IMG/VR virus record: IMGVR_UViG_3300027917_000013
Length of the DNA: 36,406 nucleotides
Direction: 5' to 3' (one strand)
Origin: a virus
This document shows, one piece after another, positions 13,876 to 32,919 of the stretch. The position numbers and the translations under genes are program-made. Under the pieces are notes generated by a model. It was not told the origin of the DNA. It saw only the letters and a list, made by a program, of their open reading frames with translations, and did not search any database. How positions within the stretch are numbered: position 1 is the stretch's first letter; each line of letters begins with the position of its first letter.

Positions 13876-15279
13876 TTACAACCTCCGATAAAAACCAAAT
13901 TCGCCCTCGGGGGGGACAATGCGGTTTGCATCAAGCCAAACCTGAAACGGTTTTGAATGGTCAAAATGTTGGGGCATTGTGTCTTGTTGCCCAAAGTTGT
14001 TGTGAAAATAAAAAAGCCCGTCCGGTTTCAGTAATGCAAGCCATTTATCAAGCGTTGTCATCAATTCACCCGGATGAATATGCTCGATAACATCAACCGC
14101 AACAATCAAATCATATTTGAGCCCAACATTAATATAATCTTGATAGCAAGTATGGTCCCAAAGCAAAACGTTTTTATCATCCTGAAACCGGGTCATCATA
14201 AAATCACGTAATACCCCGGGCAATTCATAAACGTCAACCTGATTTGCTCCCCGCAAAACCTCAACCTCCCCGCCAATACCCCCGCCAACTACCAAGACCT
14301 TTTTATCCTTTATCTTTCGCAAGGGGTTTATGATTTGATGGTAAAACGGGGAAACATTCCATGCCAGTAAATCATATAAATATCCGTTTTCCTCGCGCCC
14401 GTAAAACTCGCGGTATTCCTCGGGGGTTTGCGGGTTTGCTTGCTCGAATGCGTTGCGGGTAAATTCGGTTCCCTTTACCGCGTAAGCAATAACATCATCC
14501 TGGGGGACCCCGGTAAAATCGGATATAAGCTCAACCAATGACAGGTAATCTTGCCATTTATCCCAAATGCCCGAAATCCTGATTTGCTCTTGATAGGTTT
14601 GCCAACCCGTTACAACCCGGGAAATATGCCCCGCTTTTACGCTCGTTGTTGAGCCAATCTTAAATTTGTATTTACCCCCCGCCTCCCTTGAAAATGCCAT
14701 ATCTTCACTTGTCCCCCCATGCCTCGGATACCAAAACCAATCAAACCGCTCGAGCGGGACCCCTGGGTTGTCATTCAAGATAGTTTCAAAAACCTCCCGC
14801 CTTATCAAAACGCAATGCAACCCAACTGCCGCGGTTGTTTCGGTAAAGTTGTCTTTCCAAACCAAGCATTGCATCAAATCCCCGAGCGTTGATTCCTTAA
14901 ACCAAATTGCCTCCGGGGGGAATCCCCGCCTTGTATAAAATGCCTGGAAAATGTCAAATTCAAAACCCTCGGGGACGGTCCGCAAGTCCTCAACGAAACC
15001 GGGACCAAATGACGCGTCCGAATCCAAAAAACAAAGGGTATCGTTGTTGCTCCGCAAGAATCCCCTTACAACCTCATTTGCCGCGGTATGAGCAACCCGG
15101 TCCTTGGCAATGATAAACGAGTCCCCCGTCCTCAACCCGGTTGTTATCAAATGGGACCAATCGGTTACAAACTGGGACTCAACGAGTTTTTCAAGACGCG
15201 TTGCAACACATATTGAGCCCCAATCAAGGGGAGCGGTTGCTTGCTCTTTGTTTACCTCATAATCAACTTTTGTTTCCAT
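13876..15279 (-). CDS. Glycosyltransferase (GT-A, DxD) fused to a class I SAM-dependent methyltransferase
   Basis: 467 aa from ATG 15279, preceded by AAGAGGAGTCAAAAGATT. The N-terminal half has CFLDSDA (DxD) and GTSEDMAF motifs and looks paralogous to the 268-aa GT. The C-terminal half has VLVVGGGIGGE (motif I), DLIVAVDVIEHI and LKPDGLFY. The ORF-track start at 15357 is a TTG that runs through a hairpin. Confidence 0.7.
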   Translation of the reverse strand: METKVDYEVNKEQATAPLDWGSICVATRLEKLVESQFVTDWSHLITTGLRTGDSFIIAKDRVAHTAANEVVRGFLRSNNDTLCFLDSDASFGPGFVEDLRTVPEGFEFDIFQAFYTRRGFPPEAIWFKESTLGDLMQCLVWKDNFTETTAAVGLHCVLIRREVFETILNDNPGVPLERFDWFWYPRHGGTSEDMAFSREAGGKYKFKIGSTTSVKAGHISRVVTGWQTYQEQIRISGIWDKWQDYLSLVELISDFTGVPQDDVIAYAVKGTEFTRNAFEQANPQTPEEYREFYGREENGYLYDLLAWNVSPFYHQIINPLRKIKDKKVLVVGGGIGGEVEVLRGANQVDVYELPGVLRDFMMTRFQDDKNVLLWDHTCYQDYINVGLKYDLIVAVDVIEHIHPGELMTTLDKWLALLKPDGLFYFHNNFGQQDTMPQHFDHSKPFQVWLDANRIVPPEGEFGFYRRL

Positions 15280-15301
15280 AATCTTTTGACTCCTCTTTTT
15301 C

Positions 15302-15351
15302 GAGCGGGGGAATTGGAGGAGGAGGAGTCCAAACCTCCGCTTCCCCCGCTC
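15302..15351 (-). promoter_or_regulatory. Large GC-rich stem-loop between the 143-aa gene and the GT-MTase gene
   Basis: There are perfect 11-bp arms, GAGCGGGGGAA (15302-15312) and TTCCCCCGCTC (15341-15351). An inner GGAGG/CCTCC pairing adds to the stem. No U-tract follows on the minus strand. Confidence 0.5.
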
Positions 15352-15355
15352 TACC

Positions 15356-15382
15356 AAATAAGCGCGCCGGGGGTTGCGCTTA
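15356..15382 (-). terminator. Weak intrinsic-terminator-like hairpin at the stop of the 143-aa gene
   Basis: The minus-strand RNA reads UAAGCGCAACCCCCGGCGCGCUUAUUUGG. This gives a 6-bp AAGCGC/GCGCUU stem, a 10-nt loop and a U-rich trail. Confidence 0.35.
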
Positions 15383-15811
15383 ATTTGGGTCTAATTGGAC
15401 AAACAACAACGCGGTAAAGTCATTGGTATTTGTGGGAGCCATATTGGTAGTACTGGTATATGAAATCCCCAAACCCTCGCCCGCGGAAAACGTCAAAACG
15501 CCCGGGCGTATGCTTGCATAACTTTGTTGTGTGTTTGCGGTTGATAGGACGGGCGCGGGGTATCCCGATTGTGCAAATTCGGTCCCGTCTTTTTGCGCCC
15601 GGAAAGTTGCGGAATCAACTGTAACCTCCGCGCTTGCCTGTACTGAAATACCAACAACGCTCCCGCCCTTTGGCATGACAACCAATGTGTTTGTATAGGT
15701 TGCATCGCTCGCGGTCAAGTCGGTATTGGTTTGGTTTGTTACGGCATTTGCAACCCCAAAAGGAATTGCAATAATCCCGCCGTATTTACCCGCGTTAAAT
15801 TCATCGCCCAT
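15380..15811 (-). CDS. Hypothetical virion protein (possible capsid decoration protein, by position)
   Basis: 143-aa Ser/Thr/Ala/Gly-rich ORF directly downstream of the major capsid gene, with GAGGAG 8 nt upstream of the ATG. Confidence 0.6.
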   Translation of the reverse strand: MGDEFNAGKYGGIIAIPFGVANAVTNQTNTDLTASDATYTNTLVVMPKGGSVVGISVQASAEVTVDSATFRAQKDGTEFAQSGYPAPVLSTANTQQSYASIRPGVLTFSAGEGLGISYTSTTNMAPTNTNDFTALLFVQLDPN

Positions 15812-15870: not shown

Positions 15871-17229
15871 TTACGAATAGTTAATACCATGTATGCCCGC
15901 GGTGTGGTCCTTACCCCGAGCGGTTGAGTCCCCGTTGTCTTGACAAGCAATTGCCTCGCGGAAACTCAACACCATGATATACAATCGTTTCCTGATATCG
16001 CGGTCAACCTCAATTAAGAGGTTGCGCTTAAAGCCTACTTTCCACATATCGCGGTGTACAAGGGCAATTTGCCCCTCGTCATTGCTTGCCGCGGTTGCGG
16101 AAACTTTACCATCATCCTCGGCAAGAGGCATGGATGCGGAAACAACAATTGGTATCCCGTCCATGCGGGCAAGCTCGCCCGTTAAGATGGTTGCTTGCGG
16201 TCCGTATTTGTCCAAGGTCCTTACATTGGTTAAGCTCAATAGGCTTATTAGATAAGTTTTGACATTTGTGATTGCCGCGATTCTCCCGGGGTCAACCCCG
16301 TACTTGCCCATTCGAGCAATACCCGCGCGCCATTCCGCGTCATCAAGAGTCGAGTCAACGTCCGTTGATTGCCCGGTACGGTCAACAAGGTAATAATGAC
16401 GAATCCCGTCTTGTCCGTTGCTCAAGTAATACGAGTCGGTTGGAGGGGTTGCATCATCAAGGTTAATATTCCCGGTTGCGGTTGCGGTTGCATCGGCATT
16501 GAGGGCAAACGCGTCCATTGCCTCCGCTCCGCTCCGCCTCAACTCCTGGGTTAAGGTTGGCAAAACTGCAATAACCGCATCCTCATCAAGGTCATAAGCC
16601 CAGTTTACCTCCGCGATATTTTCAGTTGCGGTCATTGTGGATTTTGCGGTTGCGGGGTTTTGCGCGTCCGTTGCTTCCCCAACCGTCCCTTTTCTCCACG
16701 TTATAGACCCCCAACCAACCGGGAAGTCAAACGGGTCCGAGGGCATTGCAATCGGGGTCCCAAACAAACCAACAACTCGGGACATTAAGAAAAAATCCTC
16801 CCATAGAGTCGCGGCAAGTTCAGTTGGCACATATTCATCCCCCGCGCCCGCGGTGGTTGCATCAAGCAATTTTGTCATATCATCGGATAAGGGTTTTGCG
16901 CCCTTGGGGTCAAGCTCCCGCGCCCGTTTGATGAATTGCCCCGCAAATAAAACATCGGACAATTTGCGCCCGTAAAACTTATTTGCGCGGTCCTCAACGT
17001 AACCTTGCGCCTCCGCTTTGAAACCATCGGGACCAACCCAATCCCCTTTTCGGACCGGGGTTTTATCCTTTTGAGCGTCCGCTTTTTCTTGTACCAAAGC
17101 ATCAACTTTCCCGCTCAATTCCTCCGCGAGTTTGTCAATGTCAATAGTTGTGCGGTCCTCTTTATGCTCTTTTACAACGGTTGTTAATTCTTGAATTGAT
17201 TGAATCAATTCATCCTGTTTATCCGTCAT
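15871..17229 (-). CDS. Major capsid protein, HK97 family
   Basis: 452 aa following the prohead protease. It has a charged, coiled N-terminal delta-like region and then a core (…GAGDEYVPTELAATLWEDFFLMSRVVGLFG…) typical of HK97-fold capsid proteins. Confidence 0.8.
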   Translation of the reverse strand: MTDKQDELIQSIQELTTVVKEHKEDRTTIDIDKLAEELSGKVDALVQEKADAQKDKTPVRKGDWVGPDGFKAEAQGYVEDRANKFYGRKLSDVLFAGQFIKRARELDPKGAKPLSDDMTKLLDATTAGAGDEYVPTELAATLWEDFFLMSRVVGLFGTPIAMPSDPFDFPVGWGSITWRKGTVGEATDAQNPATAKSTMTATENIAEVNWAYDLDEDAVIAVLPTLTQELRRSGAEAMDAFALNADATATATGNINLDDATPPTDSYYLSNGQDGIRHYYLVDRTGQSTDVDSTLDDAEWRAGIARMGKYGVDPGRIAAITNVKTYLISLLSLTNVRTLDKYGPQATILTGELARMDGIPIVVSASMPLAEDDGKVSATAASNDEGQIALVHRDMWKVGFKRNLLIEVDRDIRKRLYIMVLSFREAIACQDNGDSTARGKDHTAGIHGINYS

Positions 17230-17965
17230 TGTTAAATTCCTCCGTTAAGTCTTGTATAACATTTGATAAACTGTCAATTACCTCGGGGGGTAATTCCGTT
17301 TCACTCGCGTCGGGTATTGGTTCATTTGTGTTTGGTTCAACGTCATTATCCTCGGGTAATTCTGAAACGGGGTCATCTTGCTCCCCGTCATCATTCGTTT
17401 GTGTTTCCTTAAGCAATTCATCAAGCGTTTTAAGGGCAAGCCTCAACGCGTCTTGGTTTGCGGGTATTGTTACAATGCTTGACTCCAACATTTCCCATTT
17501 TTTGTAAACCCGTCCCCGTTGCAAGGGCTCCCCAGTTTCATCGGTACGCTTTTCCCATTCAACCGGGATAAACCCAACTGACATTGCATTTAAAAATCCC
17601 TTGTCCCATAAATCCCTTACAAGGTCCGCCTTGGCATTAATGCCCCGCTCAATAAACTGAAAGACCTTTTTGACTCCCTTACCCGGTATCAAGGAAACCT
17701 CAATTGCTTTTGCGACAACCGCGCCCGGGTCATAATAGTTATGCCCAAAAAGGATTACCGGGTTTTTATAATAATTGGTAAGGTCCGCGCCCTCCGCAAG
17801 TAATATATCCCCGTCCCGGTCAACTGATTCAGTTGAAACCATTGCCTCATAAATGCCCGCCTCGGGGTCAACCGCTTTTGATTCAATTACAAATGTTTTA
17901 CGTAATTTAACGTTACCTTTTTCAATCATTGCGTTAAAAAACGATTCGGTATTTGCGTCATTCAT
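17219..17965 (-). CDS. Prohead protease, HK97 / S78 family
   Basis: 248 aa. The sequence MVSTESVDRDGDILLAEG...PVILFGHNY matches the conserved N-terminal core of HK97-type prohead proteases. It lies between the portal and capsid genes. Confidence 0.8.
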   Translation of the reverse strand: MNDANTESFFNAMIEKGNVKLRKTFVIESKAVDPEAGIYEAMVSTESVDRDGDILLAEGADLTNYYKNPVILFGHNYYDPGAVVAKAIEVSLIPGKGVKKVFQFIERGINAKADLVRDLWDKGFLNAMSVGFIPVEWEKRTDETGEPLQRGRVYKKWEMLESSIVTIPANQDALRLALKTLDELLKETQTNDDGEQDDPVSELPEDNDVEPNTNEPIPDASETELPPEVIDSLSNVIQDLTEEFNNDG

Positions 17966-20082
17966 TCCTCAACCTCCGGTATCATCACACATAAACAATT
18001 GATAATATTGCCCGGGCTCCCGTTTGGGTCCCCTGGGTATTCCAATTGCTCATTGCCAACAACAAACATTTCATTGATTCCAACTCTTTGGTTATGCGCC
18101 GCGGCATGTTCGTCGCGCGTCCTCCCTGGGAGCAATGCGGAAATCCATATTTTCTTTTTGACAACCTCGGATTGGTCCCATGCTTGTTGGTCCGCAAAGT
18201 TGCTTGCGCCCGTCATTGTTGTCCTTGCAATACGCTCCGTTTGATAATCCGATTTGCGCCCGCCAAAGAAATTATTGATACGCTCTTGCATTGACGGAAT
18301 ACCCTCCCCCGCAAGCTCGGACTCTTGGATTATACCAATTAACCCGTTCCATGTTGTATCATTTACCTTTTGGGCAACCGTCCTTAATATATGCTCAATG
18401 CCAGTCCTTACAAGGGGAGCGTCAACGTCAAAGAGTAAATCAATCCCGAGCCCGTCAAGCTCATTTTGTCCAACCTGGGCAACCGTCCCTGCAACTGGGG
18501 GACCAAAACGCTTTATAAATTCGTCAACCCATTGCTCAAAATCAAATAAGTCCTCGGGGGTTGGAATCCGCTCGGGCTCCCGGGATTGAAACTTGCCGCG
18601 CCCGTAAATGCGGGAATTGCGGAGCCTTGCGTTAATTTCGTTTTGTTGGTCTTGGAAATAACGCTTAAGGGCGCGCCTCATGGAGTCAACTTGCTTGTCA
18701 ATTTGTTTTTGAGCCTTGCCCCAAATCGCCTCATGTTCTGCGCTTCCGTATTCGGGACCAATCATTTTATTTTTGGGGTCATTGATTCCCAGGTTATCAA
18801 CCCGAGGAGTAACAAACGCGCCCGCCTCCGAAATCGGGACCAAATTAACGGGAATATATCCAATGTCCCCGCCCTCAACCTCGGGCAAACCCAACCCCAG
18901 GTATTCGTTAAGCTCATTGACGGGATACCCCCGGTTTGCCAAGCGGTCAAGTTGGTCAATCTTGCTTGTCTTGTCCTCTTGCAACTGGGGAATCATTGTC
19001 AAGTTGGTCCTTACCTCAAGACCCCGCTCAATCTTGTTGTTTTTGCGGAAAAAGCGGGTTAACCCGTCATCCCTGAAACGGATAAGCGGGACAAGCGTCA
19101 AGGTCCACAAAACCCGGTCCGCGGTGTCAAAGTTTTCATAAGTATCCCGCCCGTAACCCATGATTTCATCGGGGACCCCGAAAAGCGCGCCCACCTCGTC
19201 GCGGTTAAACTTGCGTTGCTCCAACCATTCAACGTCTTTGGGAGGAAATGAAAAGGGCTTAATATCTGTAACCCCGTCCTCAAGTATGATTGGTTTATGC
19301 AACCCCTCCCCGGTCCCATAATCCCGCATAAGCTCATTCATATATTCATCCCGCTCAGTTTTGGTCAAACCATTGGGAGCAATCAAAGCATAATCCGGGC
19401 GGGCTTGATTGCGAAAAAATAACCGGGTCCATGCTTGCGCCAATTGGTCAATGATAATACCAATGCGGACCGCGGTAATGGGAGCAAGCCCGCGCCAAGG
19501 GTTGAGCGGGTTATAAAACTTGAAATGTATAAACTCCTCCGGGTCAAGTATGTAATCCGGTCCGTAACCGTCATCAATCTTGTAACCCGCAACCTTGCGG
19601 TACCTTTTTCCTTTTTTCTCGGGTTTTACATGGAATATATGAGGCTCCCTGGGATACATTTCAAGGATTGCATTTTGCGTTTGGTTCATTACCAATTCAA
19701 CCCCTTGCTCCCCGCCAAGCATCATATTAACAACCCATTCCCCCCAAAAATCCGCTTGTGACATTTCCTCATTGGGATAATCCAAAACGTCATTCAAAGG
19801 ATGATTATCCTTGGTTTCGTAACTGTCCCCGGTTTGCTCAACAACATTTATATCAAGCGGAGCAATCGAATCCTTGAGGACCTTGATTGCTTTGTGTACC
19901 CAAGTTTGGGTTTGATAGAAATCCGCATTGCCCAAGAACGTCCCCCGAGCAACCCCCCGCTCCTCCCCGCTCATTATCCGCATGATTGGCAACCTCCATT
20001 GCAAATCGGGATGCAAATCATACAATGGGGAGGGGTTGGTTTGTTTGTTTACCCGGTCCGTTATTCGTTTCAATATACTCAT
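17962..20082 (-). CDS. Portal protein fused to a MuF-like (SPP1 gp7-like) minor head protein domain
   Basis: 706 aa. The N-terminal roughly 430 aa are portal-like by position and length. The C-terminus has MuF hallmarks: RIARTTMTGASNFADQQAW, WISALLPGRTRDEHAAAHNQ and PGDPNGSPGNIINCLCV. Confidence 0.75.
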   Translation of the reverse strand: MSILKRITDRVNKQTNPSPLYDLHPDLQWRLPIMRIMSGEERGVARGTFLGNADFYQTQTWVHKAIKVLKDSIAPLDINVVEQTGDSYETKDNHPLNDVLDYPNEEMSQADFWGEWVVNMMLGGEQGVELVMNQTQNAILEMYPREPHIFHVKPEKKGKRYRKVAGYKIDDGYGPDYILDPEEFIHFKFYNPLNPWRGLAPITAVRIGIIIDQLAQAWTRLFFRNQARPDYALIAPNGLTKTERDEYMNELMRDYGTGEGLHKPIILEDGVTDIKPFSFPPKDVEWLEQRKFNRDEVGALFGVPDEIMGYGRDTYENFDTADRVLWTLTLVPLIRFRDDGLTRFFRKNNKIERGLEVRTNLTMIPQLQEDKTSKIDQLDRLANRGYPVNELNEYLGLGLPEVEGGDIGYIPVNLVPISEAGAFVTPRVDNLGINDPKNKMIGPEYGSAEHEAIWGKAQKQIDKQVDSMRRALKRYFQDQQNEINARLRNSRIYGRGKFQSREPERIPTPEDLFDFEQWVDEFIKRFGPPVAGTVAQVGQNELDGLGIDLLFDVDAPLVRTGIEHILRTVAQKVNDTTWNGLIGIIQESELAGEGIPSMQERINNFFGGRKSDYQTERIARTTMTGASNFADQQAWDQSEVVKKKIWISALLPGRTRDEHAAAHNQRVGINEMFVVGNEQLEYPGDPNGSPGNIINCLCVMIPEVEE

Positions 20083-20222
20083 AATTTAATACCCATTTCA
20101 TAACCCTCGATTAATGCCGCGACAAAGTATTTACAAAGTTTAACCGTTGCCCCGGCAATTATCCCCAAACCAATCGGTATTAAAGCAAACAACCAACCAA
20201 GCGCGGATTTGATTTTTGTCAA
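20079..20222 (-). CDS. Small single-TM peptide (47 aa, TTG start), absent from the ORF track
   Basis: My hand translation is (M)TKIKSALGWLFALIPIGLGIIAGATVKLCKYFVAALIEGYEMGIKL. GGGAGG lies 8 nt upstream. The TTG overlaps the TGA of the 894-aa gene, and the stop overlaps the portal ATG as ATGA. This fills an otherwise unexplained 136-nt gap. Confidence 0.45.
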   Translation of the reverse strand: MTKIKSALGWLFALIPIGLGIIAGATVKLCKYFVAALIEGYEMGIKL

Positions 20223-22903
20223 CGTTTGTGCCTCCCGCGTAATTTGTTGTAACGATTACCTGGGACCCCCAACTGATTCAAACGGTCATACCGTAATTTT
20301 CGTTTTACCCATTTCCGGGGTTGCTCCTCGGGGGTAACAATATCAATGTCAACCAATTCCCCAAGGATAACCGCGTCAAGTACATTAATTGATAAATCCC
20401 CGCCCGATAAAACCAAAACGTTTATTGCATCGGCAACCGTTACATTATCCGTTACCCCGATTTGCAAAGCATCCGGTAACAAGAGGCTTGCCGCGTCCGC
20501 AACCGTCAAACCATCAAGGGCTTGAATAAATAATAAGGTTGCAAGGTCAATTTCATCCGCAACTGTAACCCCGTCCGTTTCCGATATTTCGAGTTTGAGC
20601 GGGTCCAAGTTTGCCGCGTCCGCAACGGTAACCCCGTCCTCAACGTTGATATAAAGGATGCCCTCAACCGGGATTGATACGTTTACCGCATCGGCAACCG
20701 TTACCGCGTCCGTTTCAAATATCTCAATCAATAACGGGTCAACCTGGGCAATGTCCGCAACCTCAACCCCGTCCGTTACATCAACTTGCAACGGGGTCAT
20801 TGTTACGCTTACAAATTCATCAACGGTTAACCCATCGGAAACATTGACATATATAACACCCTCAACCGGGAGGTTGACGTTGATTTCCTCCCCAACCGTT
20901 ACACCCTCCGCAATCGCGATTTGCAACGCGTCCGGTAATGATACGCTTACAAATTCGCCCAGGTCAACATTGTCCGCAACGTCAATCCTTATGGGTATTT
21001 CAACGTTTGTAAACTCCCCGAGAGTCAACCCCTCCGCAATCGCGATTTGTAAAGCATCGGGCAAAATGACGTTGATAAATTCGGCAAGCGTTGTCCCGTC
21101 CGTAACGTCAATTTGTAAAGCATCGGGCAAGGTTACGTTGATGATTTCGCCCAGGTTTACCCCGTCCGTTGTACTGATTTCGAGCTTGATTGCTCCTACC
21201 TGGGCAATGTCCGCAACGGTCAACCCGTCAAGCTCGGCAATCTGTAAAGCTCCCATTTCGAGGTTAACGATTTCCGCGATTGTTACCCCGTCCGTTTTGC
21301 TTATCTCAAGTTTGATTGGGGCAACTGCAACGATTTCGGAAACGATTACCCCGTCCGAAACCTCAATTGTTAGGTTTGCCTCCCCTGGGATATTGACGTT
21401 GACAAACTCGGAAACGGTCAACCCATCGGTTTTATTTATCTGTAACGCATCGGGGAGGGTTACGTTAACAAACTCCCCCAGGTTGATGTTATCGGATACG
21501 TTTACCTCAAGTTTAATTGGTCCAATATTGACAAACTCCGAAACTGTAACCCCGTCCGTTTCCGATATTTCCAAATTGGATAAAATGACGTTGATGATTT
21601 CCCCAAGGTTTACCGCGTCCGAAACATTGATTTGCAGATTACCCAAGCGGACCGTTACCAATTCGCCAAGCGTTATCCCCTCGGTTTCGGATATAAAGGA
21701 TTTGAGCCTTGCGGTTACTTGCTCCCCCAGGGTTACTCCGTCCGTTTCAACAATCCCGGCAAGTTTGGTTTCAACCGTTACGATTTCGTCAACCGTTACC
21801 CCGTCCGTTTCCGAAACGGATAAATCCCCGCCCAGGTCCAAAGTATTGAAATAAATATTGCTCCCGTCCGTAAATATGTACCCAATTTCATTTGAGCTTG
21901 ACGGAGGTTTTTCAACCATTAACCGGGTATATGTTCCGGTTTCAATTGCTCCCCCATCGGTCCAACCGCTCCCGGTATTATAAATGTAATGAACGTCCGC
22001 GCTTGTATCTATATAAAATATATATTGGTCCGTCCCAACATAAAGCGCATCAAGTAAATATTGTCTATTGGTAGATACTACGTTGTAACCTGTATCCGAT
22101 AAAGTATCAACGTCCGCGCCCTCATAAATGTTGTCATTATTATCCGCAAAAACAATCCAAGGGGTTGTGCCTGAAACGTCAATTGCCATGCCTGCACTTG
22201 CTTGGTCCGCAACCCCCTCATCCTCGGTTCCCCAGGTTCCGCTTGTCCGCTTGCGGTAATAACCGTCCTTATCGTTTGTTGTTTCAGTATAAGATGATGA
22301 ACCACTATAAACAACGTGCGGGTCATCTGCGGTGTCAAGGACCATATCAACCATATTACAATGTTCTTGTATATCGGTTGCGCTTACTTTTTCTTGGGTT
22401 GCCCAAGATGCCCCGGTCCGGTTTGAATAATAAGGGTGTCCGTATGTTGTACCCTTAATTTTTAAACCCATTGTTGTTAAAACGTGAGGTTTGTCATTGC
22501 TATCAATCCAAATTCTTATATCCCCGTAAGTTGTAAATGCCAATAAACCATCAACAACAATACCAACTGATTCCCAAGACCCCAACCATGAATCGGTTCC
22601 GGTATCATATACCCGATAATAAAGAGGGGTTGCAAAAGGTAAACCAACAACAACGTGAATATCATCCGTTGAATCAATTGCCGCGTCCATTGCAGTAAAT
22701 TCTTCATCCGCGCCAACAATGTCATTATCTGTAACGGTTGATTGCAATGACGGGGAAGTATCAACATTTTTATATATCCGAAATTCGGGGTATCCGTATG
22801 TCCCTTTTGTACCTCCCGGGACAATAGCATACCAAACCCCGCCCGAGGTTTTAACAACCGCTCCGCGCAAATCTAAACTTGCCGCGTTGATTGTGATTGC
22901 CAT
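20219..22903 (-). CDS. Large virion-associated repeat protein with a propeller-like N-terminal domain, 23 tandem repeats and a basic tail
   Basis: 894-aa ORF. The N-terminal roughly 355 aa show a recurring D..D.PHVV / G..W pattern suggesting beta-propeller blades. Residues 364-856 are tandem repeats. The last 38 aa contain 13 Lys/Arg. Confidence 0.85.
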   Translation of the reverse strand: MAITINAASLDLRGAVVKTSGGVWYAIVPGGTKGTYGYPEFRIYKNVDTSPSLQSTVTDNDIVGADEEFTAMDAAIDSTDDIHVVVGLPFATPLYYRVYDTGTDSWLGSWESVGIVVDGLLAFTTYGDIRIWIDSNDKPHVLTTMGLKIKGTTYGHPYYSNRTGASWATQEKVSATDIQEHCNMVDMVLDTADDPHVVYSGSSSYTETTNDKDGYYRKRTSGTWGTEDEGVADQASAGMAIDVSGTTPWIVFADNNDNIYEGADVDTLSDTGYNVVSTNRQYLLDALYVGTDQYIFYIDTSADVHYIYNTGSGWTDGGAIETGTYTRLMVEKPPSSSNEIGYIFTDGSNIYFNTLDLGGDLSVSETDGVTVDEIVTVETKLAGIVETDGVTLGEQVTARLKSFISETEGITLGELVTVRLGNLQINVSDAVNLGEIINVILSNLEISETDGVTVSEFVNIGPIKLEVNVSDNINLGEFVNVTLPDALQINKTDGLTVSEFVNVNIPGEANLTIEVSDGVIVSEIVAVAPIKLEISKTDGVTIAEIVNLEMGALQIAELDGLTVADIAQVGAIKLEISTTDGVNLGEIINVTLPDALQIDVTDGTTLAEFINVILPDALQIAIAEGLTLGEFTNVEIPIRIDVADNVDLGEFVSVSLPDALQIAIAEGVTVGEEINVNLPVEGVIYVNVSDGLTVDEFVSVTMTPLQVDVTDGVEVADIAQVDPLLIEIFETDAVTVADAVNVSIPVEGILYINVEDGVTVADAANLDPLKLEISETDGVTVADEIDLATLLFIQALDGLTVADAASLLLPDALQIGVTDNVTVADAINVLVLSGGDLSINVLDAVILGELVDIDIVTPEEQPRKWVKRKLRYDRLNQLGVPGNRYNKLRGRHKR
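20336..21814 (-). repeat. Coding tandem repeat array (23 degenerate units of 15-25 aa, mostly 19-25)
   Basis: Units include SETDGVTVDEIVTVETKLAGIV, SDNINLGEFVNVTLPDALQIN and VTDGTTLAEFINVILPDALQIA. I parsed 23 units by hand. The periodicity also produces a 398-aa shadow ORF on the plus strand. Confidence 0.85.
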
Positions 22904-23337
22904 TATTCAACAACCTCAACAAACTTATATGAGCAATCGGGGAATTGCTCATGCCAGTATTTCGAGTCCTCAACCATCTTTGGGGGATGCGGTTTACAGG
23001 TTTGCTCCCAAATCCAATGATAGGTTGAGCCATAAAGCGCGCAAGTCATATCATCCTTTAAAAACGGGCATTGAGTATTTCCGGGTTTGTGCAAACCGTT
23101 TCCCCATTCATAAGGGTATTCAAGTCCGTCAACGATTGCAATCCCGCTCATTTGGATTTGCAACCGCTCCCCATCTTTGCCAGTTACCCCGCAAAGTTGC
23201 GATTGCGGGAAAGATTTATGATAGTCCTTTGCTTGCCAAGCGCGGTATTGCTCCGGGGTATTCTTACCCCAGGGATTCTCCCCATTGGTCCCGCAACATT
23301 GCCCGCAAAGGTTACACTCGCCAACGCGCTTAAACAT
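22903..23337 (-). CDS. CxxCxxCC-family (YkgJ/UPF0153-like) Zn/Fe-S protein
   Basis: 144 aa with ECNLCGQCC near the N-terminus and QCPFLKDDMTCALY later, which is the signature arrangement of the CxxCxxCC family. The stop overlaps the next ATG as TAATG. Confidence 0.65.
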   Translation of the reverse strand: MFKRVGECNLCGQCCGTNGENPWGKNTPEQYRAWQAKDYHKSFPQSQLCGVTGKDGERLQIQMSGIAIVDGLEYPYEWGNGLHKPGNTQCPFLKDDMTCALYGSTYHWIWEQTCKPHPPKMVEDSKYWHEQFPDCSYKFVEVVE

Positions 23338-23341
23338 TCAC

Positions 23342-23584
23342 TTAATCCTTTGGGTTGAAAATCGCGGTTGCTTTTATTCCGTCCTCAACTTGAATACCCA
23401 GGGTTGGGGGGTTTTGGTCCGCCTCAACCGGGACATAAACGTTGATGGTATAAGCATTGCAATTCCCAAGACCCGGGACATAAATACCAATTTCATGGTT
23501 TTTACTCAAAGAGCGGACCATTGCAACCCCGGGGATTGCCTCAACCGCTTTTAACAAGTCCTCATATTTCAAATCATCCGTCAT
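23342..23584 (-). CDS. Hypothetical protein
   Basis: 80-aa ORF starting immediately after the GT stop. No family recognised. Confidence 0.65.
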   Translation of the reverse strand: MTDDLKYEDLLKAVEAIPGVAMVRSLSKNHEIGIYVPGLGNCNAYTINVYVPVEADQNPPTLGIQVEDGIKATAIFNPKD

Positions 23585-24391
23585 TTATGCAACCTCATAA
23601 TTGGGGAATTTGCTCCCGTCAATATTGATATGAAAACAAAATAAATTGGTATCAACAAGAAAAGGGTATTTTTTGCGTTGATACTTGGACCAACCCGCTT
23701 TTTTAAAATACTCGCCTTGTATGACCCGGTTGCACCATTCAAGGTCCGAGGTCCCCGAAAAGGTATTAAATTGGTTTGCCTCCTCAACAAAATAAACCCG
23801 TTGCGGGGTATCGAATACGCGCCTTGTTACCGTCCCCTTTATTTGGTATTCGGGGGACTCTTTCCACATTTCGCGGAGTATCCCCATGTGAATTAACAAA
23901 AACCCGGTTGGGACCCCGCTTGCCCAAACCAACTCCCCGCGCTTGAAATCGGTATAAACCGAGGTCCCGCGCCCTCGGAAAATCAAGGGCTCGGAAGGTT
24001 CCGCCCGCGTGTAGTAAAGACCGGAAACAACCGGGGTATCCTCATCCCTGATATATTGATTGAGTCTCAAAAGCGCGTCCCCAGGGGCAATAACATCATG
24101 CTCCCATAAGAGCAACCATTCAAAATCTTTTTCAATGGCGCGCTTGACAATCAGGTTTTGAGCGTCCGCAACTTGGTAACGCAAGGGGAAATATCCGCCC
24201 ATGTATTCGAGCGTTGTAACCTGGGACCAATTGACGGGGATGATTTGCCCGTATCGGGATTGTGTCCATTCGACTCGGACAATCCCCAGGGTTGCGGTCC
24301 CAATCATTACTCGATTGATATAACCCTCCCCCCCATCTTGCACAATTATTCGATAATCGCGGACCGGGTTTGACTCCTCTTTTTTATTCAT
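23585..24391 (-). CDS. GT-A fold glycosyltransferase-like protein
   Basis: 268 aa. It has LLLWEHDV in the DxD position, and also YYTR, GFLLIHMGILRE and GTSDLEWCNRV. These elements are collinear with the N-terminal half of the 467-aa GT-MTase (CFLDSDA, FYTR, GLHCVLIRREVFE, GTSEDMAFSRE). Confidence 0.55.
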   Translation of the reverse strand: MNKKEESNPVRDYRIIVQDGGEGYINRVMIGTATLGIVRVEWTQSRYGQIIPVNWSQVTTLEYMGGYFPLRYQVADAQNLIVKRAIEKDFEWLLLWEHDVIAPGDALLRLNQYIRDEDTPVVSGLYYTRAEPSEPLIFRGRGTSVYTDFKRGELVWASGVPTGFLLIHMGILREMWKESPEYQIKGTVTRRVFDTPQRVYFVEEANQFNTFSGTSDLEWCNRVIQGEYFKKAGWSKYQRKKYPFLVDTNLFCFHINIDGSKFPNYEVA

Positions 24392-24941
24392 AATATGATT
24401 TGTCCTCCCGCCTCTTGATAAGTATTACCTCCATATTTCCGGTTGGGTCCCAACTGGGGGAATCCCCGATTGGTCCCGCAATTTTCCAAGGTTTCGGACG
24501 GTAAAACTTGTAAAGCAAGCCCTTATCCTTAACATGTAAGGGGTCAAAATACAACCATGTATTTTCATTCAAAAAGTTGATATGAGTCGGGTCTTGGAGC
24601 ATTCCTGGGCTTGCCCCATGAGGGCATGAAATGGCAAATTGCCCGTCCGGTTTCAGGATGCGCCAAACTTCATCCATAAACTCAACGAATGGGAATCTTG
24701 TCCCCTTTTCCGTTATGGCAACCGGGGGGATATGCTCAACCAAATGAGAGCAAACCGCGCGTATCGCGCAAGCATCGGGCAAGGGCTCCCAGGGATGAAT
24801 ATTTATATCCCAAATAATATCAACCCCCGGGAGCTTTTGCACATCAAGCCCAACCCAATCCGGTCCTTGCTTGTTTGCTCCGCACCCAATATCAAGTTGA
24901 ATCCCGCTTGCATCCGCAAGTAAACGCTTTATATCATTCAT
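24384..24941 (-). CDS. Class I SAM-dependent methyltransferase
   Basis: 185 aa from ATG 24941, preceded by AAGAGGAGTCAACTT. Motifs are LDIGCGANK (motif I), CSHLVEHI and ILKPDGQFAI. There is no DPPY/NPPY-type DNA-MTase motif. The ORF-track start at 24986 lacks an RBS and overlaps the upstream gene. Confidence 0.7.
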   Translation of the reverse strand: MNDIKRLLADASGIQLDIGCGANKQGPDWVGLDVQKLPGVDIIWDINIHPWEPLPDACAIRAVCSHLVEHIPPVAITEKGTRFPFVEFMDEVWRILKPDGQFAISCPHGASPGMLQDPTHINFLNENTWLYFDPLHVKDKGLLYKFYRPKPWKIAGPIGDSPSWDPTGNMEVILIKRREDKSYYE

Positions 24942-24972
24942 AAGTTGACTCCTCTTTTGAGATGTAAACCGT

Positions 24973-25467
24973 TTACGCGGTTGCAAAGGTTACATCATAA
25001 GTATATTCAACCGCTTGGTTTGTCGCGCAAGTTGATGACCCATAAGTATTACCCGCAAAGATGGTCCCGCCCGTTGAGCTCGCGAAAAGCCCAATGTTTG
25101 CAAGGGATTCGGTTGCGGTAACAAACGAGTCCACACTTGCAAAGGTCCCAGTAAAGCGGACCCGGGTTGAGCCCGAACTTGCCGCGGTTACCGCGTCCCG
25201 GTTTCCATTTGCATTGGAACCCGTAACCTCGGATTGTAGCGCGGTATCCGTTGCGCCCGGTTCCGTCCCCTCACCAAGCGCGGCATAAGAAATATAACTT
25301 GAGCCCGAAATGGAGCCCAGGGATTTTACAAGGTAACCAAGGACCCCGTCATTTACGATTTGGTTGGGTCCCTGATAACCCGAATCTCCCGCAATGCTCC
25401 CGTCTTGGTTGCGGATTCTTACATGAGAAAACCCATGTATCTTTATTCCTTTTTCTTTTACTTTCAT
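24973..25467 (-). CDS. Hypothetical Ser/Thr/Gly/Ala-rich protein (possible virion component)
   Basis: 164-aa ORF just downstream of TerL, with GGAG 8 nt upstream. Its composition looks beta-rich (…AALGEGTEPGATDTALQSEV…IGLFASSTGGTIFAG…). No family named with confidence. Confidence 0.65.
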   Translation of the reverse strand: MKVKEKGIKIHGFSHVRIRNQDGSIAGDSGYQGPNQIVNDGVLGYLVKSLGSISGSSYISYAALGEGTEPGATDTALQSEVTGSNANGNRDAVTAASSGSTRVRFTGTFASVDSFVTATESLANIGLFASSTGGTIFAGNTYGSSTCATNQAVEYTYDVTFATA

Positions 25468-25558: not shown

Positions 25559-26809
25559 TTACCTTGCCCTTGAATAAGCCCAATACCTGAAACCATCAAC
25601 CGCATGATTGTTTTTATCAATTGGGTTTTCGTCATCTTTGCGACTCCCTTGCTCCGGGTATTTGTACCCGTCCGTCAATTCACCAATAAAGTTTTTGCAT
25701 CTTGGATGCACAATCAAACTCCTATAACCGTTTGAGTCCCGTATTAATCGCCTTACAACCGCAATGCCCTCAACAATCTTATGAGCCTTAAACCTGTAAG
25801 GAATATCCGCAAGCCTGAAACGGTTTTGTAATTCTTTCGCCTCCGGGGGACCAATACAAATATCAGGTTTGGGGAGCCCGTAAGATTCGCATTTTTGTAT
25901 TACCTCCTCAACGCATGTTTCCGCCAAATGACGGGAGTGATAAATTTCATCAAAGACAATTACATTGCTCGGGGTCCGTTGAATAAACAAGATTGCCCGG
26001 GGGTCAATGTACCCATCATCAACGCCCAACTCAACGGTCAACTCGGGGTTGGGCTCAACCCGCTCAATGTTTGCGGTATCAAACTCCCGATAAACAACGC
26101 CTTCCGCCTGGACCCATTTACCCTCAAGCAAGCGTTGTCTTTGTATGCCCGTAAGCATTTCCAAGGATTCAAGGTATGAGGGCGGATTATATGGGTTGTC
26201 CCTTGCATTGGAGTAATAAACCTTTGCCAATTTCCCGAGGATAAGATTTTTGTTTATAAAATGCTCGGGTCCTCCCGGGTTGGTTGACAAAATGATTTGA
26301 GTCCAGTTTGCCGCGGTCCCCCGCATCCGGGCAAGAATTTCGTTGAAATCGGACTCCTCGAATTGCACCGCTTCCTCAAGCCAAACAACATCAACCTTGC
26401 CCTCATGCCCGATTGAGCGGATATGCTCCCGTTGCTCTTGGTTTGCCATGCCTCCCCAAGCAAGAATTGACCCGTTGTCATATTCAAACCTGAAAAGGGA
26501 CGGGCGGAAAGTAACCCGGGGGTCTTGGGCAATGATGGTCTTTTGCATAAAGAGGACAACCGAATTTGACATTGATTGTCTAATCTTGCGGACCATGAGC
26601 CCCATTGCTCCCGGGTATTTGAGCATAAAACCATGAATCTTTTCGCCCGCAAGCCTGGATTTACCCCCGCCCGCCGCGCCCGTCAAAAGCATAATTCGGG
26701 ATTTATCGCGCCAAGGATTTATTTGCCAAGGTAATGGTTTGTAATGTGCAATGTATTTCTTACGTTGTGAGGGCGGGGATTTCGTTTGTGTCCTCATTGT
26801 CCCAATCAT
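25559..26809 (-). CDS. terL: Terminase large subunit
   Basis: 416 aa following TerS. The Walker A-like motif is LLTGAAGGGKSRLAGEK. A WLEEA acidic (Walker B-like) motif and a C-terminal nuclease-sized region are also present. Confidence 0.8.
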   Translation of the reverse strand: MIGTMRTQTKSPPSQRKKYIAHYKPLPWQINPWRDKSRIMLLTGAAGGGKSRLAGEKIHGFMLKYPGAMGLMVRKIRQSMSNSVVLFMQKTIIAQDPRVTFRPSLFRFEYDNGSILAWGGMANQEQREHIRSIGHEGKVDVVWLEEAVQFEESDFNEILARMRGTAANWTQIILSTNPGGPEHFINKNLILGKLAKVYYSNARDNPYNPPSYLESLEMLTGIQRQRLLEGKWVQAEGVVYREFDTANIERVEPNPELTVELGVDDGYIDPRAILFIQRTPSNVIVFDEIYHSRHLAETCVEEVIQKCESYGLPKPDICIGPPEAKELQNRFRLADIPYRFKAHKIVEGIAVVRRLIRDSNGYRSLIVHPRCKNFIGELTDGYKYPEQGSRKDDENPIDKNNHAVDGFRYWAYSRAR

Positions 26810-27347
26810 CCGGGCTTACTTGCTCATAAGCCTTAACAACCGTAACGGTTGTATCTTGCTCAATCTTGTCCGTCCATAATTTGTGAAATTTTCCAACTTG
26901 AATTAAAGCGGTTTGGGAGTCATAAAATTCAACCTCCGCAATACGCCCGGAAACCCGGGACATTTTCATCTTTTTAATCAAATGCCCTTTACCATCTTTA
27001 AGCAACCTCTTAAGGTCAAGTATTTTTGTTTCGGGGTCAATATAATCATTGTATTCCGCTTTTGCCTGGGACCCCAAACGGTCTAATATTTCATTTGGGG
27101 TAATCATCCGCTCACCTAAAATTCTGTCAATCTCCTCCCTTATTTTAGGTTTTTTTAGATTGTCATGCCCAACAACGCCCAAAGTACTATAAGACCCCTT
27201 ATAACCTGCCATTTCCGCGGCTCGGGTTGCATTAAGGGTTTCAACGTAATAATGAATAAATAACCGTTGCTTTGGAGTAAACCCGGTCATTGGGGTCAAT
27301 AATCGCCCGTTGTGTTTCCCGTTTGAATTATGCCCGTTGTTGCTCAT
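26760..27347 (-). CDS. terS: Terminase small subunit (Terminase_2 / P27-like)
   Basis: 195 aa. The sequence LTPKQRLFIHYYVETLNATRAAEMAGYKG matches the characteristic HTH start of this family. It lies immediately upstream of TerL. Confidence 0.75.
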   Translation of the reverse strand: MSNNGHNSNGKHNGRLLTPMTGFTPKQRLFIHYYVETLNATRAAEMAGYKGSYSTLGVVGHDNLKKPKIREEIDRILGERMITPNEILDRLGSQAKAEYNDYIDPETKILDLKRLLKDGKGHLIKKMKMSRVSGRIAEVEFYDSQTALIQVGKFHKLWTDKIEQDTTVTVVKAYEQVSPDDWDNEDTNEIPALTT

Positions 27348-28204
27348 ATTCTCACAACCTTATACTCCGCATTTTCAAGGTCCGTAACCCGTTTGTTTAG
27401 CGCGTCAATTTGCTCTTGTAAATCATCATCCGGGGGGATTGGCTCAACAACCCCGCAATAAGCGCGCAACTCGTTTTGGGTCCCAAAGAAATAATTGTAA
27501 TCAACATTGGTAGTAACCGCGGGGACCAAAGGAACCCAACTATGCTTACCCGAAACCCCGATTTGCCAAAGTTTGAGCATTGGCGAAACCCAACCAATCG
27601 GGAGGGTTGGGGAGCTTGCACTTGTCCAATGAGCAACCCAACCGTCATAATTGGGAGCCCAAGAGGTATTACCAATCAATTGTTGCCAAAGATACGGGGA
27701 TGAATAAAACCCGGACCGGGCGCGGTAATCATTCGTTACCTCAAGGTAATTAAGCAAATTACCAACACGCGTATTTACGCTTACATTATCAGGGGTTTCA
27801 ACGTCCGCCCAGGTTGGGGGTTTATATAAAAGACGCTCGACAATTTTATAAAGCTCGAATAAATGGGTATTTGCTTGTAATTGCCCGGAAACGTTTGAGC
27901 GGAAAAAATGGTAAACCATAACCGCAAGGTCCGCATCCTGGGCGCGGTAACAATATTCATGGGACCCATCAACAACCCAGTTTGCCTCCGTTAATTTTAC
28001 GATAACCGCTCCGAATCCGTCCGCTTTGAGTTTTTTGAAATCAACATTTGGTTGATAATCGGGATGCAAATCAAGGACCGGGACAACTGGGGGAGCAACC
28101 GCAAGGGTACGCGCGGCAAATGCAACTACCTTATCCCAGGTTGAGGGGTAAGGGGTTTCAAAAAATCTTGGGTCCCTGGTTGTTGGATTAAAACCGTTTG
28201 TCAT
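27344..28204 (-). CDS. Endolysin, GH25 muramidase-like
   Basis: 286 aa with collinear GH25 landmarks: LDLHPDYQ..VDFKKLKADGFGAVIVKLTE, VMVYHFF, WADVE, SGFYSSPYLWQQ, GWVAHWT, LKLWQIGVSG and VDYNYFFG. A C-terminal coiled tail follows. Confidence 0.7.
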   Translation of the reverse strand: MTNGFNPTTRDPRFFETPYPSTWDKVVAFAARTLAVAPPVVPVLDLHPDYQPNVDFKKLKADGFGAVIVKLTEANWVVDGSHEYCYRAQDADLAVMVYHFFRSNVSGQLQANTHLFELYKIVERLLYKPPTWADVETPDNVSVNTRVGNLLNYLEVTNDYRARSGFYSSPYLWQQLIGNTSWAPNYDGWVAHWTSASSPTLPIGWVSPMLKLWQIGVSGKHSWVPLVPAVTTNVDYNYFFGTQNELRAYCGVVEPIPPDDDLQEQIDALNKRVTDLENAEYKVVRI

Positions 28205-31602: not shown

Positions 31603-32919
31603 ATGCCAATTATAGGATTGACGGACGGGACCCCGTCCATTAAAGAAATCGGGCGAATCCGTAAGGGCTCGGAAAAAGAGCAATACAAACCCGGGGTAAA
31701 CCTTGATTATTTCCGGGTTACTTTTCGCCCGGATGAAACCGAAATGCAAAATGCGTTTAATAGCATTTACGGGAATGAGCCCAGGACCATCAATGTAAAG
31801 CTCGCGTATGATGTTTGGGATGATAACCTTTTCTTTGCATATTACACTTGTTACCTTAAGGGCGGGATGCTCGGACAAGCAAACGGGGAGCAATGGGTTT
31901 ACCTCCGCGATTACCGGACCCAGGAAATCTTAATCAAGGGCGGGGAATTGACGGAAACGGGTAAAGCCCGGGAAATGAAAATTGCGTTTGATGAAAATGA
32001 GCCCGTTTATTTTTATCATTCCGAGCGTAAGAAAAAAGATATACCCGTTTACGCAAAACCCGAGGGGAGGGTTGCGTTGATGGTCCCCGAATTGGGGAGG
32101 TATGTTTACCTTACGCTTTTGACCCATGCGAAAAACGATTTGGCAAACTTGTCCGGGGAATTGCGGGACATATTCAACCGGGCGGAGCGGTTGGGAGTTT
32201 ACCCCTCGGATATTCCGCTTGTATTATCAAGACGGTTTGAGCCCGTAAGCAAGCCCGCATACAATGGGGAGGGGAGGATTACAACCGAGGAGTCCCTTGT
32301 CCATTTGGAGCCTCATGAGCAATTTGCAAAACTGGCAATTGGGTTTACCCAAAGAAAAACCTTGGAGGCGTTGACCCCTGGGCAACCCCATGTTGAGCAA
32401 TTGCCCGAGCAACCCGAGGATTATGCAATGCTCCCCTCGGGACCCGAGCCCCCGGAAAACTGGGATATAACCCCAGGACCAATGTTTGATTCGGAGCTTA
32501 TGCCCGAAAACAACGCCCAGGTTGAGCCAAAAGAGGAAACAGGGGATAAGGATACCCCCGAGGAAAATAAACCCCAGGAAAACCCCGTTTTTTCTTACGT
32601 TGATTTGGTCAATAAGCTCAACAACTGGGCGAAAATGTATAAAAACCAAGAGGCAACGACGCGGCATAGAAATTTGCTTGCATCGGTCCTTGATACAACC
32701 TTTGACGGGAATGAGGCAATGCGCCATAAGTTTACAAAGATGGTAACCGGGTTTGAATCAACAAGGGATATACCGGATGCGCTTTTACTTGCCATGCTCA
32801 AAACTTACCTGGGCGTTACGGGTTGGGATACCCCCCCAACCCCGGAGGCAATCCAAGAGGTCAAAGAATTGGGGAGCCTTTTGAATTTGGAGGATTCAGA
32901 AAATGACAATGACGAATGA
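31603..32919 (+). CDS. Large early protein, probable DNA replication or recombination factor (family not identified)
   Basis: 438 aa preceded by AGAGGAGTCAAATT. The conserved-looking N-terminus is IGRIRKGSEKEQYKPGVNLDYFRV. A Pro/Glu-rich linker follows, and the protein ends in an acidic tip (LEDSENDNDE) reminiscent of SSB-type tails. It lies upstream of the replisome-organizer gene. Confidence 0.8.
   Translation: MPIIGLTDGTPSIKEIGRIRKGSEKEQYKPGVNLDYFRVTFRPDETEMQNAFNSIYGNEPRTINVKLAYDVWDDNLFFAYYTCYLKGGMLGQANGEQWVYLRDYRTQEILIKGGELTETGKAREMKIAFDENEPVYFYHSERKKKDIPVYAKPEGRVALMVPELGRYVYLTLLTHAKNDLANLSGELRDIFNRAERLGVYPSDIPLVLSRRFEPVSKPAYNGEGRITTEESLVHLEPHEQFAKLAIGFTQRKTLEALTPGQPHVEQLPEQPEDYAMLPSGPEPPENWDITPGPMFDSELMPENNAQVEPKEETGDKDTPEENKPQENPVFSYVDLVNKLNNWAKMYKNQEATTRHRNLLASVLDTTFDGNEAMRHKFTKMVTGFESTRDIPDALLLAMLKTYLGVTGWDTPPTPEAIQEVKELGSLLNLEDSENDNDE

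Follow-up and report, generated by a model that had tools for sequence, protein, structure and literature searches.

We investigated the uncultured virus record IMGVR_UViG_3300027917_000013 (IMG/VR), 36,406 nucleotides of DNA that we refer to as the window, and focused on genes inserted between the large terminase subunit (TerL) and the portal of its HK97-like phage. The insertion contains a predicted glycosyltransferase gene (GT268) paired with a predicted methyltransferase gene (MT200). The same pair recurs in dozens of related viral loci, next to genes for fiber-base or tail-tube proteins. Our favored reading, held with moderate confidence, is that a mobile module glycosylates, and possibly methylates, exposed virion proteins. 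The observations behind it are of four kinds: folds, motifs, gene order and co-occurrence. The genes concerned, and the boundaries of the insertion, are as follows.

25559-26809, minus strand: TerL, the upstream boundary of the insertion (Pfam Terminase_3, E 7e-17; PHROG 2)
24973-25467, minus strand: p164, a Ser/Thr/Gly-rich structural protein (open reading frame and fold of the model)
24384-24986, minus strand: MT200, a predicted class I S-adenosylmethionine (SAM) methyltransferase (motifs and Pfam matches of relatives)
23585-24391, minus strand: GT268, a predicted GT-A-fold glycosyltransferase (fold of the model and invariant residues)
23342-23584, minus strand: p80, a small conserved protein after the glycosyltransferase (iterative homologue search)
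22903-23337, minus strand: Cxx144, a CxxCxxCC-type protein with eight conserved cysteines (signature and relatives)
20219-22903, minus strand: p894, a protein of 894 residues, entire (open reading frame)
21839-22903, minus strand: N-terminal domain of p894, residues 1 to about 355 (tblastn matches beside Cxx144 homologues)
20219-21838, minus strand: C-terminal part of p894, tandem repeats and basic tail (repeat register)
17962-20082, minus strand: fusion of portal and MuF, the downstream boundary (Pfam Phage_portal, E 6e-53; Phage_Mu_F, E 1.5e-8)

A preliminary description, made from the sequence alone, had read the five genes from p164 to Cxx144 as one modification cassette. Its account of the layout holds: all five open reading frames lie on the minus strand between TerL and portal, within one continuous late operon with tight junctions among structural genes, and every motif quoted there (LDIGCGANK, LKPDGQFAI, LLLWEHDV, GTSDLEWC, ECNLCGQCC and CPFL) is present. 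The MT200 and GT268 genes overlap by 8 nt, the GT268 and p80 genes abut, a gap of 4 nt separates p80 from Cxx144, and Cxx144 overlaps p894 by 1 nt. A Shine-Dalgarno-like sequence precedes every start in the set. Promoter-like and terminator-like sites across the operon did not rise above shuffled expectation, and the G+C content of the insert is flat. No transmembrane segment was found in any protein of the set, so all are predicted to be soluble, and the (D/N/S)PP(Y/F) motif is absent from each of them.

The predicted enzyme pair and its fiber-base-like neighbor

GT268 is the anchor gene of the module. A search of 5.8 billion proteins returned 1,443 relatives at E<=1e-3; the best 120 of these (59-77% identity) are all annotated as "hypothetical," and none carries a Pfam domain. 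Across 40 aligned members (50-77% identity), E97-H98-D99, G213-T-S-D216 and H254 are invariant, as are many further positions. In the AlphaFold2 (AF2) model (predicted local distance difference test [pLDDT] score 79), the EHD motif directly follows the strand formed by residues 92-96 and represents an ExD variant of the DxD-type acidic motif. A Foldseek search of the PDB gives STIV A197 as the best match (E 2.9e-6), then COLGALT1, the glycosyltransferase domain of LH3, and Mnn9. Further matches include heparosan synthase, GalNAc-T, mimivirus R699, SpsA, WrtF and PBCV-1 A64R. Sixteen matches fall at E<=1e-3, and down to about rank 29 all are GT-A glycosyltransferases or glycosyltransferase domains. 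No PHROG was matched, NCBIfam returned only a rhamnosyltransferase at E 0.13, and sequence and profile searches of the PDB found nothing relevant. Judged by its model, GT268 has a GT-A fold, and as a sequence family it stands outside the curated glycosyltransferase families. We predict that it is a soluble, metal-dependent GT-A glycosyltransferase, both the activity and the metal use being predictions. The invariant ExD, found on checking the DxD site, and the modeled fold bear out the preliminary call of a GT-A glycosyltransferase-like protein.

Two of the fold matches invite direct comparison. Like GT268, STIV A197 and PBCV-1 A64R are small, soluble, virus-encoded GT-A enzymes, and A64R is annotated in its PDB entry as taking part in the glycosylation of the major capsid protein. 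However, these enzymes belong to an archaeal and an algal virus, respectively, and GT268 is only ~14% identical to them, is paired with a methyltransferase and is linked to fiber genes. It also has an extra 35-residue insertion (residues 37-71) that is modeled with low confidence and contains invariant residues.

MT200 is, on its sequence motifs, a predicted class I SAM-dependent methyltransferase. Motif I (LDIGCG, within LDIGCGANK), the invariant D48, and also D60 are intact, and an HxxEH stretch and a DPTH motif are conserved. The protein matches Pfam Methyltransf_23 at E 1.3e-3 and 18.9 bits, under the cut-off of 27, and 14 of 30 relatives match Methyltransf_11 (best E 9.3e-6). Its best PDB match is the methyltransferase 3dli (E 0.018), with the DPTH motif common to both. 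GxG is kept in 47 of 60 sequences of the family. Neither the DNA-methylase motif IV, (D/N/S)PP(Y/F), nor a PC motif occurs in MT200, Cxx144 or p493 (a second methyltransferase-containing protein, described below), in agreement with the earlier assignment of a methyltransferase lacking DNA-methylase motifs. The ATG at 24941 is a more probable start than the TTG at 24986, because a GAGGAG Shine-Dalgarno sequence lies upstream and the N-termini of homologues agree with it.

The first gene of the module encodes p164, which, by its model (AF2, pLDDT 81), is not an enzyme and has the fold of a tail-fiber or tail-collar fiber base (attachment) domain. Foldseek against the PDB matches it to a 953-residue tail protein of HFTV1 (9h4p_BD, E 6.5e-5, TMq 0.54), probably the HFTV1 tail-fiber protein, and to 8jou_a, the fiber I/adaptor entry of phage GP4 (TMt 0.58). 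According to the HFTV1 study (10.1101/2024.12.09.627619), a tail-fiber protein of that virus forms a base of trimeric build, which is anchored to the hub of the baseplate. In BFVD, many of the matched proteins bear the names minor tail protein, tail fiber or tail-collar fiber; an uncharacterized protein ranks first (TM 0.80/0.87). The relatives with solved structures trimerize, and p164 may, by likeness, do the same. The p164 model resembles GP4 fiber I (gp80), the HFTV1 fiber base and the N-terminal domains of "tail-collar fiber" proteins, but, unlike these, p164 is a stand-alone protein of 164 residues without sequence-level membership. It matches no Pfam or PHROG family and is thus not a member of PF23140 (Gp80) or similar fiber-base families by sequence; among 40 relatives, one matches Pfam Gp80 (E 0.058) and seven match DUF7382 weakly. 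Sequence and profile searches of the PDB gave nothing meaningful. No adjacent modification enzymes are reported for the solved GP4 and HFTV1 fibers. We regard p164 as a candidate acceptor and as the conserved first gene of the module.

Recurrence of the module in environmental phages

With the window proteins as tblastn queries, we compared 85 loci, viral or metagenomic, each of which encodes a relative of GT268. GT268 was matched in 85/85 loci, and an MT200 homologue lies directly upstream of the glycosyltransferase in 82; the three misses are at or near a contig end. Recurrence at this level places the arrangement far from chance. A p164 homologue sits directly upstream of the methyltransferase in 54 of the 85 loci, and repeats of the p894 type occur within 10 kb of the glycosyltransferase in 33 by tblastn and in 44 by clustering. 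No p80 homologue was detected in the 85 loci by tblastn; an iterative search found homologues of 65-82 residues in 21 loci besides the window (~14 once near-identical contigs are merged), almost all of them encoded immediately or a short way after the glycosyltransferase. p80 matches no Pfam or PHROG family and is possibly an accessory or adaptor protein.

Gene-order tables reveal two arrangements. In about 55 loci, p164, the methyltransferase, the glycosyltransferase and a small protein are encoded in this order, and a repeat protein usually lies close by. In 23 further loci (among them L009, L012, L019, L022, L035, L046, L052, L060 and L069), the pair is located between a lambda-like tail tube protein, which matches Pfam Phage_TTP_11/12 above threshold, and the tail assembly chaperones and tape measure. 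A second DxD-containing glycosyltransferase-like gene ("WILDDDD") often accompanies the pair there. A p164-type fiber-base gene or a tail-tube gene precedes the enzyme pair in ~78 of the 81 loci with enough upstream sequence; therefore, the gene before the pair appears to encode an exposed virion protein. We also considered the N-x-S/T sequon as an acceptor motif. It is present in tube proteins ("ANVTNIS"), but at the near-invariant position N154 ("VNYTYD" in p164 relatives) the window's p164 has E, and we rejected the motif. Four loci have a fiber-tail adaptor of the GP4 gp77 type (E 3.6e-20) after the glycosyltransferase, which fits a fiber-I-like role for p164; no gp77-type gene was found in the window.

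Unrelated backbones carry the module: phages with a Mu-type portal, phages with an SU10-type capsid, siphoviruses that encode a tape measure and the HK97-like phage of the window. One locus (L032) has the same order of small terminase subunit (TerS), TerL and p164 as the window, with a TerL that is 61% identical. Across backbones, glycosyltransferases share 50-65% identity, compared with 21-25% for the portal in the 11 loci with a portal match. By these sequence comparisons, p164-MT200-GT268-p80 appears to be a conserved, horizontally mobile unit. Among the GTDB representative genomes, the enzyme families were found on just six contigs of metagenome-assembled genomes, which belong to unrelated phyla and are probably binned phage contigs.

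Some related loci contain more sugar genes than the window does. Within structural clusters of L001 (1200-5650) and L002 (16123-20362), we found an RmlC-like protein, an NDP-sugar epimerase/dehydratase, a PglD-like hexapeptide acetyltransferase and extra GT1/GT2 genes, which suggests more elaborate glycans there. A zinc-ribbon-like protein of 72-87 residues (CxxC...CxxC) is encoded between the methyltransferase and the glycosyltransferase in L001 (9782-10000), L002 (9757-10014) and L004 (9741-10004). The window has no equivalent, because its MT200 and GT268 genes overlap.

Cxx144, p894 and a probable second enzyme set

Cxx144 has the CxxCxxCC signature (ECNLCGQCC) and a second CPFL...C cluster. 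It scored 21.8 bits against the Pfam CxxCxxCC family (PF03692), whose cut-off is 23, and 8 of 32 relatives match that family at E<=0.01. The preliminary description had linked this gene to the flagellin lysine N-methylase FliB. Against the FliB model NF038110, Cxx144 reached 13.7 bits (E 0.033) where the cut-off is 85, with the match confined to residues 84-118, and its 144 residues compare with 373 positions in the model; it is not a member. An exhaustive HMMER search identified ~50 representatives of 146-187 residues, whereas a word-indexed search returned one fragment only. Eight cysteines are conserved in the family (C8, C11, C14, C15, C90, C99, C114 and C135). Sequence and profile searches of the PDB with the family gave nothing meaningful. 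Cxx144 shares with FliB and YkgJ-like CxxCxxCC proteins the CxxCGxCC signature and the CPFL...C cluster, and it is found alongside a surface filament protein, as FliB is. However, it is shorter than the FliB model, lies below both curated thresholds and belongs to its own small family. We treat the FliB analogy as a lead only.

Gene neighborhoods separate Cxx144 from the enzyme pair. It is present in none of the 85 loci described above. In all seven Cxx144 loci with downstream DNA (L092, L093, L094, L096, L097, L098 and L099), a homologue of the p894 N-terminal domain is encoded immediately afterwards, with matches within residues 1-450 (tblastn query, p894 residues 1-435). No homologue of MT200, GT268 or p164 was detected in these seven loci, two of which span 16 kb. 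The full Cxx144 alignment was too divergent for scanning for further loci; a narrower alignment added two. On sequence, Cxx144 is best described as a divergent, putatively metal-binding CxxCxxCC-type protein outside the module of the pair. The proposed single five-gene cassette thus does not survive as a unit, p164-MT200-GT268-p80 being the part that is conserved, and the CxxCxxCC protein loses its assigned place in the enzyme system.

The partner of Cxx144, p894, has two dissimilar parts. The N-terminal domain contains repeated "D..D.PHVV" segments and matches nothing by sequence in Pfam, PHROGs or the PDB; it might be a beta-propeller, a guess without a supporting search match. The C-terminal part consists of 23 tandem repeats of ~21 residues with the consensus L-x-I-x-x-[ST]-D-G-V-T-V-x-E-x-V-x-V. 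These repeats are acidic and are followed at the terminus by a strongly basic 35-residue tail (PRKWVKRKLRYDRLNQLGVPGNRYNKLRGRHKR; window positions 20219-20323, minus strand), which might serve as an anchoring or nucleic-acid-binding segment, something unusual in a fiber protein. The repeat region is fiber-shaft-like and is a further candidate acceptor. Because the N-terminal domain travels with Cxx144 and the repeat type travels with the enzyme pair, p894 appears to be a chimera. A 398-residue Ser/Thr/Pro-rich open reading frame runs antisense to the repeats (20658-21854, plus strand); it is almost certainly an artifact of the repeats and not a gene.

A second methyltransferase and probable GT-A set, absent from the preliminary description, lies downstream of the portal. 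Its genes, and the terminase gene at the other end of the region, are as follows.

26760-27347, minus strand: TerS (Pfam/PHROGs)
15871-17229, minus strand: p452, capsid-like
15380-15811, minus strand: p143, Thr/Ser-rich, directly before p493
13876-15357, minus strand: p493, a probable fusion of a GT-A domain and a SAM methyltransferase (Pfam and hhalign)

The p493 gene directly follows those for p452 and p143. Its C-terminal domain matches Pfam Methyltransf_23 above the cut-off (E 6.6e-7) and aligns with the MT200 family (hhalign E 5e-5). In the N-terminal region, the DxD of CFLDSDA aligns on the EHD of the GT268 family (hhalign E 0.016), and Glycos_transf_2 is matched weakly (E 0.029). The N-terminal part is thus, by sequence, a probable GT-A domain fused to a methyltransferase, and such a fusion argues that both activities work together. 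We found no p493 relatives in IMG/VR. An unfused equivalent exists in L004, where a glycosyltransferase and then a methyltransferase are encoded shortly downstream of an SU10-type capsid gene. Methyltransferase and glycosyltransferase genes thus follow a structural protein gene in three settings, where the leading gene is that of p164, of the tail tube protein or of p143. We also compared p143 with the f26 protein, which precedes the repeat proteins elsewhere, and rejected it as a counterpart, as the two show no similarity.

Other features of the window are described briefly. A nucleotide search of cultured-phage records with the region gave no match, and the closest portal in such records, that of Geobacillus phage GBK2, is just 27% identical. 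PADLOC assigned no defense-system membership. No tRNA genes were found in the window and no integrase was seen there. A GH25 lysozyme gene lies just upstream of TerS (27344-28204, minus strand), and the divergent early region encodes a Gp3-like "recombination directionality factor-like" protein (E 7e-13; 31603-32919, plus strand). A 683-residue tail-region protein (7586-9637, minus strand) contains, at residues 474-601, a Pretoxin-HINT/Hint domain (Pfam PT-HINT, E 2.4e-10), possibly an intein-like or autoprocessing element of a structural protein.

Proposed function and alternative explanations

We propose that two adjoining modules, p164-MT200-GT268-p80 and Cxx144-p894, make up the region and are expressed together with the virion genes. 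GT268 would act in the infected cytoplasm, either ahead of virion assembly or while it proceeds, transferring sugar from a host nucleotide-sugar to exposed virion proteins. The likely acceptors are p164 itself and/or the repeat shaft of p894 and, in the related siphoviruses, the tail tube protein. MT200 would act next, through SAM-dependent methylation of the sugar or the protein, with p80 as an accessory protein. Such decoration may alter adsorption, stability or recognition. The second module would supply the large fiber protein p894 together with Cxx144 as a dedicated metal-binding partner of its N-terminal domain, and p493 would probably do an equivalent job on head proteins (p143 and/or the capsid protein). 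More tentatively, we suggest a mobile "fiber/tube glyco-methylation" module of environmental phages (>1,400 glycosyltransferase clusters) that covalently places methylated sugars on receptor-facing parts (collar or tail fibers and tail tubes), with two systems in this phage, one for fibers and one for the head, and a separate Cxx144 partner.

Virion-protein modification, as the preliminary description proposed, is the best reading because the comparative context ties the pair to exposed virion proteins. One substrate that it named, p164, is by its model a structural fiber-base protein; the modification itself we infer. Furthermore, the best fold matches of GT268 are viral GT-A enzymes and enzymes whose acceptors are proteins or the glycans of glycoproteins (COLGALT1, LH3, GalNAc-T and Mnn9).

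Several points weigh against this reading. Catalysis, acceptor, sugar and biological effect (adsorption, stability or shielding) are all predictions drawn from fold and context, and we identified no acceptor residue or motif. TM-scores of GT268 to solved structures are modest (0.35-0.43), residues 37-71 of its model have low confidence, and it matches no Pfam glycosyltransferase family, such as Glycos_transf_2, even at E<=10. A subset of the tail-tube-linked methyltransferases has a 3-residue deletion in the glycine loop and DPAA in place of DPTH; with the SAM loop degraded in this way, methyl transfer is not universally conserved. GT-A enzymes use many types of acceptor, and the neighbors of fiber genes are often assembly chaperones. 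Finally, searches of 50,697 cultured phage records, many of them mycobacteriophages, with GT268 (tblastn, E<=1e-3) and with p164 gave no match, so the module is in no cultured phage record.

The chaperone habit of fiber-gene neighbors raises an alternative that we consider unlikely, namely that MT200, GT268 and p80 are fiber or tube assembly factors with enzyme-like folds, assisting the folding, trimerization or attachment of p164, p894 or the tube protein without catalysis. A position immediately downstream of a fiber or tube gene is classic for tail-fiber assembly proteins and chaperones, the tube-linked pairs sit between the tail tube protein and tail assembly chaperones, and the SAM-binding loop is degraded in several methyltransferase homologues. 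However, the ExD, the Asp of GTSD and the C-terminal His are invariant in 40 aligned glycosyltransferases, a pattern that selection on an active site typically leaves; most methyltransferases, including MT200, keep all SAM motifs; and related loci have added sugar-nucleotide genes. The entire sugar-pathway sets of some related loci would suit a non-protein acceptor, such as host envelope glycans, lipid-linked precursors (for receptor masking, superinfection exclusion or help with lysis) or a free glycan. Polysaccharide building is common among GT-A enzymes, and heparosan synthase, WrtF and SpsA are among the fold matches of GT268. We regard this explanation as improbable too, given the lack of membrane segments and Gtr-like partners, a location inside the late structural operon and away from lysogeny genes, the fiber-base or tail-tube gene upstream in ~78/81 loci and top fold matches that are protein-glycosylating or viral enzymes.

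Modification of the phage DNA against restriction, by base glycosylation and methylation, is very unlikely. Both reactions are known in phages and both enzyme classes are present, but neither methyltransferase has DNA-methylase motif IV or a PC motif, no hydroxymethylase or thymidylate-synthase-like gene was found in the window, and the genes lie within structural operons in every backbone examined. To our knowledge, none of the known phage DNA glucosyltransferases belongs to the GT268 family. We give as little credence to a single enzymatic cassette of all five genes in which the CxxCxxCC protein works with MT200 and GT268 as a FliB-like methylation component. Translational coupling of Cxx144 to both p80 and p894, its signature and the weak FliB-model match over residues 84-118 speak for such a cassette; its absence from all 85 loci of the pair, its 7/7 pairing elsewhere with the p894 N-terminal domain in loci where no MT200, GT268 or p164 homologue was detected, and the shortfall in length and score against the FliB model speak against it. 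The co-occurrence data largely refute it.

Glycosylation and possible methylation of virion proteins by this module have partial precedents. Glycans are reported on the capsid proteins of mycobacteriophages Che8 and Rita, and virion glycosylation of mycobacteriophages is reported to alter antibody recognition (PMC11256854, citing Freeman et al. 2023). In F1 phages, the glycosyltransferase genes are placed near the 3' end of the genome. The mycobacteriophage enzymes are phage-encoded glycosyltransferases thought or shown to glycosylate virion structural proteins, cytoplasmic and using host sugar donors, as we propose for GT268. Unlike the F1-phage genes, the pair studied here lies inside the structural operon, beside fiber-base or tail-tube genes, includes a methyltransferase and appears mobile. 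The reported Che8 and Rita targets are capsid proteins, in contrast to the fiber-base or tail-tube genes that adjoin the pair, and, unlike Che8-type glycosyltransferases, GT268 and p164 lack sequence matches in the cultured phage records. For adsorption/binding, a mycobacteriophage needs a minor tail protein to be methylated by MepM in a host-dependent manner (PMC13445384). In this earlier case a methyltransferase acts on a tail protein of a phage, and the methylation matters for adsorption. However, MepM is host-encoded, whereas MT200 is phage-encoded and paired with a glycosyltransferase, and its substrate may be sugar or protein.

Phage virion glycosylation is a known kind of system, documented so far for a few mycobacteriophages. 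The enzyme families described here are new at the sequence level. They offer a function-level handle on a large "hypothetical" protein family, with p164, the 21-residue repeats of p894 and the tail tube proteins as candidate substrates, and the pairing of Cxx144 with the p894 N-terminal domain is a small puzzle in its own right, concerning fiber proteins and their metal-binding partners. If the more tentative reading of a "fiber/tube glyco-methylation" module is true, phage virion glycosylation would extend far beyond actinobacteriophages as a general transferable trait, overlooked so far because cultured phages lack the module. With a conserved, mobile enzyme pair of this kind next to fiber and tube genes in hundreds of uncultured phages, post-translational decoration of the host-recognition apparatus would then be widespread, with a possible influence on adsorption, host range, particle stability, and immune or defense recognition.

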